Below, piece by piece: positions 60,416 through 62,009 of a DNA stretch of 64,000 nucleotides (position 1 is its first letter; each line of letters starts with the position of its first letter). The notes beneath the pieces are model-generated. The model was not told the DNA's origin and did not search any database. It worked only from the letters and a program-made list of their open reading frames with translations. The translations under genes and the position numbers were made by a program. The stretch is from Candidatus Nomurabacteria bacterium (GTDB lineage Bacteria > Patescibacteriota > Minisyncoccia > Phycocordibacterales > UBA918), in NCBI GenBank assembly GCA_023898585.1, contig CP060229.1, forward strand, positions 462,763 through 526,762. Direction: 5' to 3'.

Positions 60416-62009
60416 TTAAATTAGAGTTTGATCCTAGCTCAGGATGAATGCTGGCGGCGTGGATGAGGCATGCAAGTCGAATGCTGCACCTTTCAGTCTT
60501 TGTTTTACAAGACGGAAATGAAGTTTGAAAGGTGCAGCATGGCAGACGAGGTAGGAACACGTAGGTACGTACCCAAGAGTCAGGGATAACCCGGCGAAAG
60601 TCGGAATAATACTTGATGGTCCCAGCTCCAGTTTTAGTTGTCATTTATATTCTTTCGTGAAAAACATAAATAATTTTTGTTTATTACACTTGTAAATAAA
60701 TGGTTACCAAAACTGGGGCTGGGTAAAGATTTATCGCTCTTGGAACGGCCTGCGGTCTATCAGCTTGTTGGTAAGGTAACGGCTTACCAAGGCTACGACG
60801 GATAGGGGAGGTGAGAGCCTGACCCCCACCGATGGAACTGCGACACGGTCCATACTCCTACGGGAGGCTGCAGTCGAGAATCTTCCGCAATGGGCGAAAG
60901 CCTGACGGAGCGACGCCGCGTGGTGGATGAAGTGCTTAGGCACGTAAACACCTTTTATGAGGGAGGAAGTTTATTGACGTTACCTCATGAATAAGGGGCT
61001 CCCAACTCTGTGCCAGCAGGAGCGGTAATACAGAGGCCCCAAGCATTATCCGGATTCACTGGGCGTAAAGGGTGCGTAGGCGGTGTTATTAGTCGGGTGT
61101 TAAATCCTGGGGCTCAACCCCAGACTTGCATTCGAAACGGTAATACTAGAAGAAGTCAGAGGTTTAGAGAACTCTCGGTGTAGGGGTGAAATCCGTTGAT
61201 ATCGAGGGAATACCAAATGCGAAGGCACTAAACTGGGACTTTCTTGACGCTGAGGCACGAAAGCGTGGGTAGCGAATCGGATTAGATACCCGAGTAGTCC
61301 ACGCCCTAAACGTTGTCTGTTGGCTTTAGGAGGAATCGACCCTTCTGAGGTGAAGCTAACGCGTTAAACAGACCGCCTGGGTAGTACGAGCGCAAGCTTA
61401 AAACTCAAAGGAATAGACGGGGGCTCGCACAAGCGGTGGAGCGCGTGGCTTAATTCGTCGCTAAGCGAAGAACCTTACCGAGATTAGATATCATACTGCA
61501 CGCTCCGGGAAACCGGAGAATCCTTCGAGGGTGTATGGCAGGTGATGCATGGCCGTCGTCAGTTCGTGGCTTGAGCTGTTCCCTTAAGTGGGGAAACGAA
61601 CGCAACCCTCGTTGCCTGTTACAAGTGTCAGGCGAGACTGCTCCCTCACGGGAGAGGAAGGTGAGGATGACGCCAGGTCAGCATGTCCCTTGATGCCTCG
61701 GGCTGCACTCGTGATACAATGGGTAGTACAAAGAGACGCAATACCGTAAGGTGGAGCAAATCTTCAAAACTATCCTCAATTCGGATTGAGGTCTGCAACT
61801 CGACCTCATGAAGCCGGAATCGCTAGTAATCGTAGGTCAGCTATACTACGGTGAATACGTTCCCGAGCCTTGTACTCACCGCCCGTCAAGTCAGGGGAGT
61901 CGGAAGTGCCCGAAGTTCGTCCTTGTGGCGACCTACGGTAAATTCGATAACAAGGACTAAGTCGTAACAAGGCACGGCTAGCGGAAGCTGGTCGTGGATT
62001 AATTCCAAT
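60416..62009 (+). rRNA. rrs: 16S rRNA with extended V1 helix and an about 100-nt AT-rich insertion in V2 (60621-60724); 3' tail GGAUUAAUUCC instead of GGAUCACCUCC
   Basis: AGAGUUUGAUCCUAGCUCAG, GUGCCAGCAGGAGCGGUAAUAC, 1492-site AAGUCGUAACAAGG. Confidence 0.9.

Follow-up and report, generated by a model that had tools for sequence, protein, structure and literature searches.

The locus described here raises the question of how a ribosome finds its start codons when its 16S rRNA gene ends without the sequence that pairs with the messenger. The gene lies at positions 60416-62009 of the window, the whole 64-kb stretch of DNA that was analysed, and its 3' end lacks the anti-Shine-Dalgarno (anti-SD) core CCUCC. 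The explanation which covers the observations best is that this is a functional 16S gene of a ribosome that works independently of Shine-Dalgarno (SD) pairing, and it is held with high confidence. Each element of the finding is a documented trait of the radiation to which the organism belongs, because anti-SD loss, unlinked rRNA genes and rRNA insertions have all been published, and the gene is an unremarkable representative of a class that has been described before. The additions made here are modest: a test of SD usage with a positive control, a catalogue of replacement tails and their complementarity, a signature of leaderless mRNAs, and a foreign-looking operon which bears SDs. The two features on which the argument turns are the following.

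60416-62009, plus strand: full-length 16S rRNA gene (Rfam RF00177, SSU_rRNA_bacteria).
61997-62009, plus strand: its 13-nt 3' tail, GAUUAAUUCCAAU in the place of the expected GAUCACCUCCUUA (from the Rfam alignment of this domain).

The gene was matched by RF00177 in the Rfam scan of the window with 1353 bits (gathering score 50) over model positions 1-1533 at an accuracy of 0.98, and its overall GC content is 50%. The 530-loop pseudoknot (60916-61030), as read from the sequence and the Rfam alignment, is altered on both sides from GGC/GCC to UCC/GGA. The two pair changes are compensated, G505-C526 becoming U-A and G506-C525 becoming C-G. In a scan of one genome per species, the variant loop GTGCCAGCAGGAGCGGTAAT was found in at least 120 genomes, almost all labelled Parcubacteria, Paceibacterota, Kaiserbacteria, Nomurabacteria, Zambryskibacteria or similar, and the matching loci were numbered L001-L120. 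Over positions 306-1594 of the 16S query, the closest 16S genes share 90-93% identity with that of the window, and the database entry for one protein of the window carries the label Candidatus Kaiserbacteria. Judged by these sequences, the source organism is a member of the Parcubacteria/Paceibacteria in the candidate phyla radiation (CPR), and GTGCCAGCAGGAGCGGTAAT marks a large Parcubacteria clade. The other genes of the window include housekeeping genes for a class II aminoacyl-tRNA synthetase (G/H/P/S/T type), MetRS, TatD, RecA, FtsK, FtsW, FolD and SecDF, while no ribosomal protein gene was found in the 64 kb.

The sequence-only reading had described the anti-SD tail as apparently degenerate, and the Rfam alignment of the 3' domain likewise shows a tail without CCUCC. 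On local re-alignment of this domain, the tail was placed as GGAUUAAUUCCAAU against the consensus GGAUCACCUCCUUU with top posterior probability. It reads G1530-A-U-U-A-A-U-U-C-C-A-A-U1542 in E. coli numbering, so that the anti-SD core CCUCC (1535-1539) is replaced by AUUCC, and no CCUCC occurs within the first 100 nt downstream. The core is also missing in 72 of the 77 related Parcubacteria loci with a readable tail. The common replacement tails are GAAUAAUUCAAUUUGAA, GAACAUAUCCAAUCGGAA, GAUUAACUCAAAUUGAG and GAUUAAUUCCAAUUGGA, the last being that of the window, and the UC at E. coli positions 1537-1538 is nearly invariant in the clade. Five loci, L025 (labelled Kuenenbacteria), L043, L068, L094 and L113, keep CACCUCCUU or a near variant. 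As these few carriers of GTGCCAGCAGGAGCGGTAAT retain the canonical anti-SD, the 530-loop change seems to predate its loss. A tail without CCUCC implies that the ribosome cannot select start codons by SD pairing.

Real as it is, anti-SD loss of this kind is mostly ordinary, being typical of the clade and already published. Tsurumaki et al. 2022 (RNA 28:1041; PMC9297842) detected the anti-SD motif in only 48% of Parcubacteria, and noted that the lineages without it overlap the group lacking uL1, that SD helices presumably do not form in them, that bS21 is frequently absent in Parcubacteria, and that CPR genomes have one rRNA copy each. The present gene belongs to the same clade and has likewise lost CCUCCU from the 16S 3' end. 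That study gives the detection rate and the correlation with uL1 loss only, with no test of SD usage upstream of genes, no replacement tail sequences and no trailer complementarity (PMC9297842). Amin et al. 2018 reported 128 anti-SD-less taxa of Bacteroidetes, Tenericutes, Firmicutes and Proteobacteria which also lack SDs (PMC6107228). Candidatus Carsonella, Blattabacterium, some Chryseobacterium and Mycoplasma, listed as anti-SD-less by Lim et al. 2012 as cited in Amin et al. (PMC6107228), resemble the present case in having a 13-nt tail without CCUCC, SD-less genes and no compensating new SD. Those are scattered genera, mostly endosymbionts or Bacteroidetes, whereas here a large and deep environmental clade is concerned (72/77 sampled species representatives).

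SD usage was counted as GGAG, GAGG or AGGA at -20 to -4 of genes from a deliberately naive caller, which took the longest open reading frames (ORFs) of at least 100 aa from their first start codon. The counts upstream of starts and in an internal control were as follows.

Window: 50 genes, SD upstream 12%, internal control 11%.
Anti-SD-less relatives, pooled: 340 genes, SD upstream 12.4%, internal control 14.2%.
E. coli, 50 kb, identical caller: 53 genes, SD upstream 47%, internal control 9%.

The SD-free leaders which the sequence-only reading had linked to the loss of CCUCC are borne out by these counts: SD motifs are not enriched upstream of starts in the window or in the 340 genes of its relatives, and the same method recovers a strong excess in E. 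coli. Duplex energies agree. With the canonical ACCUCCUUA, the mean was -2.24 upstream and -2.62 internally in the window, against -5.26 and -2.15 in E. coli.

Some points weigh against SD independence. Within this genome, the SD test covers the 64-kb window. The control of anti-SD-positive CPR members comprised 24 genes, with SDs in 21% against 11%, which is too small to convince, and the method was checked on E. coli instead. Finally, strong SDs precede five consecutive genes of the window, which is unexpected for a ribosome unable to use them.

54739-59663, plus strand: five-gene operon, with starts at 54753, 55463, 56150, 56735 and 58161.
54231-54500: GIY-YIG nuclease gene, just upstream of the operon.

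The SDs of this operon are AGGAGG, AAGGAG, AGAGGA, AAGGAGG and AAGGAG in start order, all of them strong and correctly spaced, and independent assemblies call identical operon starts. For the fifth gene, the longest ORF begins at 58095 and the likely start is 58161, which gives the 500 aa called in independent assemblies. An exact-protein look-up of the ORF 58095-59663 returned no match because the true start is probably 58161. All five products have signal-peptide-like N-termini. No homologues of the operon genes were found in the relatives' loci, and the protein of 56735-58003, the only one searched, matched itself alone among 5.8 billion proteins. The GC content at third codon positions is 0.53 in the operon, compared with 0.44 +/- 0.05 in the other genes. 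By its composition and distribution the operon looks foreign and was probably acquired recently, still with the signals of its donor. Its SDs do not amount to genome-wide SD use.

The context of start sites was analysed on 384 starts pooled from the window and loci L001-L120. At -14 to -6, G makes up 12-19%, compared with 33-56% in E. coli, and A makes up 37-47%; T is found at -1 in 52%. Hexamers resembling TATAAT are most frequent at 6-7 nt ahead of the ATG, where 39 + 21 = 60 of the 384 starts have one against about 11 expected from the roughly 5.7 per position further upstream. A -10 box at this distance is the geometry expected of leaderless mRNAs and suggests that many mRNAs of the clade may be leaderless. 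It was seen in 5 of 37 window genes, for example 62293-62721 (minus strand), 40571, 4751 and 49989. Start codons would then be chosen by two routes, one on leaderless mRNAs with a -10 box that precedes the AUG by 6-7 nt, the other on A-rich, G-poor and unstructured leaders. The clearest promoter geometry of the leaderless type in the window is that of the pilin gene 62293-62721 (TATAAT, 7 nt, ATG), and 7789-8715 on the minus strand is a further example of the start-site context of the clade.

The 16S gene stands apart from the other rRNA genes, with the surroundings listed below.

28565 to about 34170, plus strand: 23S rRNA gene of about 5.6 kb (Rfam, whole-window and local search).
35377-35484, plus strand: 5S rRNA gene of 108 nt, about 1.2 kb past the end of the 23S gene.
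59839-59866, plus strand: promoter-like site TTGCAC-N16-TATAAT (exact pattern match).
60183-60415, plus strand: 5' leader, whose core at 60291-60311 (CUUUUGUCUUAUCCUUUAGGU) supplies the 5' strand for a leader-trailer stem.
62143-62165, plus strand: 3' strand of this stem, GACCAAAGGAUAAGGCAAAAGAG (pairing and conservation).
62226-62271, no strand assigned: terminator-like hairpin of 20 bp that separates the 16S unit from the pilin gene converging on it; its T-run is on the minus strand.
62293-62721, minus strand: pilin gene of the type IV secretion system type (PF18895), wedged between the 16S gene and tRNA-Ile.
62977-63051, plus strand: tRNA-Ile(GAT), 3' of the 16S gene and beyond the pilin gene.

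A separation of about 25 kb downstream of the 23S-5S unit on the same strand had been proposed from the sequence alone. As the 5S gene ends at 35484 and the 16S gene starts at 60416, the gap is 24.9 kb and both lie on the same strand. The first whole-window Rfam call of the 23S gene covered 28565-32289, and a local search put model positions 2046-2912 on 31688-34155; the longer 23S gene leaves the unlinked arrangement unchanged. No 23S sequence stands beside the 16S gene in any of the 120 relatives' loci, 43 of which reach at least 3 kb downstream. The distance exceeds the 1500 bp between 16S and 23S above which rRNA genes count as unlinked, and Patescibacteria are listed as a clade whose rRNA genes are exclusively of this kind (Brewer et al., bioRxiv 10.1101/705046). 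Nothing substantive distinguishes the present arrangement from those; here 23S-5S comes first, the 16S gene follows after 25 kb, and tRNA-Ile has stayed next to the latter. This tRNA-Ile(GAT), which is found near the 16S gene in 7 of 10 close relatives, is what is left of the ancestral 16S-tRNA-23S spacer. Synteny of the pilin gene extends to five relatives (L098, L060, L063, L044 and L116).

Of the promoter TTGCAC-N18-TATAAT proposed for the gene by the sequence-only reading, the site exists and the spacer had to be corrected from 18 to 16. The mature 16S 5' end follows about 550 nt downstream of it, and such a match is expected by chance 0.02 times per window. In L044 and L062 the -35 and -10 boxes and a downstream CACTGTTC block are kept at a similar distance from the 16S gene in otherwise divergent intergenic DNA. 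We infer from this conservation that 59839-59866 is probably a sigma-70-type promoter of the 16S transcription unit. Two terminator-like hairpins with T-runs (59664-59700 and 59776-59810) follow the upstream gene and precede the promoter.

The leader (230 nt) and trailer (260 nt) pair in RNAduplex with -105.8 kcal/mol, compared with -76.4 +/- 6.4 for shuffled trailers, which is about 4.6 standard deviations (sd) below. The core stem 60291-60311/62143-62165 is kept in L044, L098 and L063, with both strands matching in L063, and the trailers of these three loci are 74-78% identical to that of the window over about 160 nt. The pairing is the classical rRNA leader-trailer helix. Cleavage of such helices by RNase III is an established step of bacterial rRNA processing, and by analogy the precursor 16S would probably be excised through this long helix. 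The upstream hairpins, the conserved promoter, the leader-trailer pairing and the terminator-like hairpin downstream together support the earlier suggestion that the 16S gene has its own transcription unit.

Two insertions distinguish the gene from those of its relatives.

About 60481-60542, plus strand: extended V1 hairpin (Rfam alignment and fold).
60621-60723, plus strand: extension of the V2 helix by an insertion with a 15-bp closing stem and an AT-rich interior.

Both had been noticed beforehand, the first as an extended V1 hairpin and the second as an AT-rich insertion of about 100 nt with closing repeats. The V1 element has 34 nt where the Rfam model has 4. It folds into a long perfect helix with a minimum free energy of -35.1 kcal/mol (z = -6.4 against dinucleotide shuffles), and V1 is about 44 nt shorter in the relatives (query positions 1-208). 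The V2 element proved to be a 97-nt helix extension, with 81 nt where the model has 2 and a GC content of 0.25. Its closing stem is formed by CCCAGCUCCAGUUUU (60621-60635) and AAAACUGGGGCUGGG (60709-60723), and it folds into a nearly perfect helix with -38.2 kcal/mol (z = -6.6 against dinucleotide shuffles). Window positions 60624-60720 (97 nt) are skipped by every 16S relative. Since the relatives lack both insertions and nothing similar was found elsewhere in the window or in the 120 loci, they are species-specific, and both are coaxial extensions of native surface helices. On the same absence of similar sequence from the window and the 120 loci, a repeated or mobile origin was rejected. Insertions of 490-840 nt occur at another site of the 16S gene in three close relatives, L021 (about 604-1446), L040 (about 5771-6614) and L088 (about 6368-6860). 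This site corresponds to window 61878/61879 (query 1463/1464), where the gene of the window has no insertion.

The extra hairpins may either be tolerated as small expansion segments or be trimmed after transcription. The second possibility is the alternative that survives best: both would be intervening sequences cut from the precursor, for example by RNase III, and the mature 16S would be shorter or fragmented. Long and nearly perfect helices closed by at least 15 bp are good substrates for a double-strand RNase, and the absence of the insertions from all relatives makes them dispensable. Most CPR rRNA insertions are reported to be absent from transcripts, and short insertions below 200 bp without ORFs are common (PMC9297842, PMC11270868). 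On the other side, no intron family reached the Rfam gathering threshold in the window, the insertions being simple hairpins of 56-97 nt without an ORF, and their place is at the ends of surface helices, which tolerate variation in length. Excision is considered a real possibility, though the less likely one, and it contests only the expansion part of the interpretation, leaving the functional 16S gene of an SD-independent ribosome as it stands. Among CPR rRNA genes, 48% of those for 16S and 82% of those for 23S have insertions, many of which are short and ORF-less (PMC11270868), and insertions in CPR rRNA genes were described by Brown et al. 2015, as cited in both Tsurumaki papers. The present two resemble the short ORF-less class of Tsurumaki et al. 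2024 (PMC11270868) in being below 200 nt, without ORF or intron signature and scattered phylogenetically. They differ from it as simple hairpins at the V1 and V2 helix tips which are unique to this species among the sampled relatives.

Another alternative supposes that the anti-SD has changed rather than been lost, so that genes would be preceded by a motif GGAAUUAA which co-evolved with the tail UUAAUUCC and pairs with it. The retained UUCC, the near-invariance of U1537-C1538 in the clade and the presence of AGAGGAAUUG before one gene (56150) speak in its favour. Against it, duplexes with the window's own tail UUAAUUCCAAU are no stronger upstream of genes (mean -1.90 at -20 to -1) than internally (-2.16), and energies of -4.5 kcal/mol or lower are reached by a fraction of 0.12 upstream and 0.13 internally. 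On these values from the genes of the window, a new SD complementary to the replacement tail was rejected, and no replacement SD would have evolved. The depletion of G at -14 to -6 argues the same way, and no matched variant SD/anti-SD pair was found in the 128 anti-SD-less taxa of Amin et al. (PMC6107228). A changed anti-SD is accordingly regarded as very improbable. Least credible of all, and only marginally behind, is a decaying or non-functional 16S copy or an assembly error in the tail, with a canonical CCUCC-bearing 16S elsewhere in the genome; one genome window was seen, its origin as a metagenome-assembled genome allows misassembly at the rRNA locus and an independent assembly is interrupted directly ahead of the 16S gene, but the match is full-length at 1353 bits with compensated pairs, L021, L044 and L098 have an identical tail followed by near-identical bases (GAUUAAUUCCAAUUGGACACG), L063 and L116 differ in the trailer only, the promoter, leader stem and trailer are conserved, and no contig occurs twice among the 80 listed matches of the 16S pattern, among them the complete genome CP174360.1 and the chromosome OZ244939.1.

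With the functional 16S gene of an SD-independent ribosome thus preferred, the near-invariant UC raises the question of what the tail region still does. The candidate structure in the window is small.

62004-62013, plus strand: candidate tail-trailer mini-hairpin, with UCC at 62004-62006, an AAUU loop, and GGA at 62011-62013.

The 67 unique tails of the relatives were examined by a per-sequence hairpin test with two nulls, shuffled trailers and trailers swapped between arm classes. A per-sequence test was used because an ungapped MAFFT alignment of the tails cannot hold three loop-length registers. In these tails the near-invariant UC (E. coli 1537-1538) lies in the 5' arm and the complement of the arm follows after a loop of 3-4 nt. 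At least three Watson-Crick pairs form in 87% of the tails. The mean number of pairs is 3.40, compared with 1.78 for shuffled and 2.31 for swapped trailers, and 0 of 500 trials reached the observed value under either null. The stems fall into the classes CUCCUU/AAGGAG (the five anti-SD-positive sequences), UUCA/UGAA, UUCC/GGAA, UCC/GGA (the window) and CUCA/UGAG. Other results speak against a hairpin. RNAfold energies of the 24-nt tail plus trailer are weak (mean -1.8 against -1.1 shuffled, with many A-U stems scoring 0), so the case rests on complementarity and compensation and not on stability. A cruder permutation gave about 2.5 sd for tail-trailer pairing and an equal value for leader-trailer pairing, and the tails are phylogenetically related. 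In several lineages the leader carries a matching GUUCC or GUUUC box, and it is equally possible that the leader is the pairing partner instead of the tail. The safe statement is that the tail region is still under pairing constraint with flanking precursor sequence.

The persisting constraint on U1537-C1538 and on the tail-flank complementarity would point to a residual role in 3'-end maturation. Era binds GAUCACCUCC; it is absent from most CPR, and the Paceibacteria are mostly without it (PMC10582724, PMC12641178). In Flavobacterium johnsoniae, ablation of the anti-SD was found in 2026 to impair 16S processing independently of translation and bS21 (PMC13000453), and the tail-flank constraint seen here fits this processing defect. 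The SD-blind Bacteroidia share with the present clade SD-free initiation on A-rich leaders, and there too the tail region matters for maturation (PMC13000453). The Bacteroidia keep CCUCC, hidden under bS21/bS18/bS6 and used for autoregulation of rpsU (PMC13000453), whereas here the sequence itself is gone. It may be that SD-blind Bacteroidia retain the anti-SD because bS21 autoregulation and processing need it, and that in Paceibacteria bS21 and Era are largely gone. The reported loss of these GAUCACCUCC-dependent factors would, on the literature for the lineage, remove the constraints on the anti-SD. The remaining processing constraint would be met by any complementary pair, so that the tail could drift AU-rich with its complementarity kept. 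A bolder proposal is that in anti-SD-less Paceibacteria the tail is not a relic at all, and that U1537-C1538 and its covarying complement just downstream form a hairpin serving as an ancestral signal for 3' maturation or quality control, with leaderless or 70S-type initiation as one main route of start selection in a major bacterial radiation. This is speculative and judged unlikely.

Outside the 16S finding, the most unusual thing in the window is a tRNA nested in the 23S gene, which carries several insertions.

29962-30334, plus strand: 23S insertion of 373 nt in the helix-45 loop (model position 1218).
30210-30284: nested tRNA-Cys(GCA) (Rfam, 50.5 bits; ARAGORN).
About 32199-33027: 23S insertion of 829 nt with a LAGLIDADG_1 ORF at 32389-32883.
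About 33153-33949: 23S insertion of 797 nt with a LAGLIDADG_1 ORF at 33299-33778.
L149 9359-9435, L176 177-255, L208 1411-1493 and L231 477-556: tRNAs in metagenomic 23S genes (Rfam tRNA, 42-54 bits, inside large-subunit rRNA matches).

The two insertions of about 800 nt look like elements of the group I intron type. The inverted repeat GUCGAGACAAUUUUGG / CCAAAAUUGUCUCAC makes up a stalk that bears the nested tRNA-Cys, and the whole insertion folds with z = -9.9. Excision of the tRNA would break the 23S rRNA. An exact 27-mer of the tRNA had no match in the metagenome scan, and a structural pattern was used in its place, most of whose 120 matches were ordinary 23S genes without a tRNA. In the four loci listed, this site likewise holds a tRNA, which is Leu-TAA in two of them, Leu-TAG in one and Phe-GAA in one. 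A 2024 survey of CPR rRNA insertions never mentions a tRNA (PMC11270868). The 108-nt 5S of the window matches the short 5S class that is typical of Parcubacteria (PMC9297842). Upstream of the SD-bearing operon, the neighbouring large genes 49989-51848 and 52691-54196 have no Pfam domains and are paralogous at both ends, with 37% identity in the first 60 residues and 26-28% in the C-terminal cysteine-containing region.

The finding has practical consequences for work on the clade. Gene callers and start predictors that rely on SDs will mis-set starts in it, and the fifth operon gene, with its longest ORF from 58095 and its likely start at 58161, is a case in point. The 530-loop change overlaps the conserved 16S stretch GTGCCAGCMGCCGCGGTAA, which we take to be a common primer site (515F-type). 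Organisms with GTGCCAGCAGGAGCGGTAAT may for this reason be under-counted in amplicon surveys. The gene is also a clear worked example of a large environmental clade with ribosomes unable to use SD pairing. The tail-flank complementarity is a testable handle on the non-SD role of the 16S 3' end, a question opened in Flavobacterium (PMC13000453). If the tail does act as a maturation signal that was kept when SD pairing, Era and bS21 were all given up, the clade would amount to an experiment of nature in which the two roles of the 16S 3' end have been taken apart.

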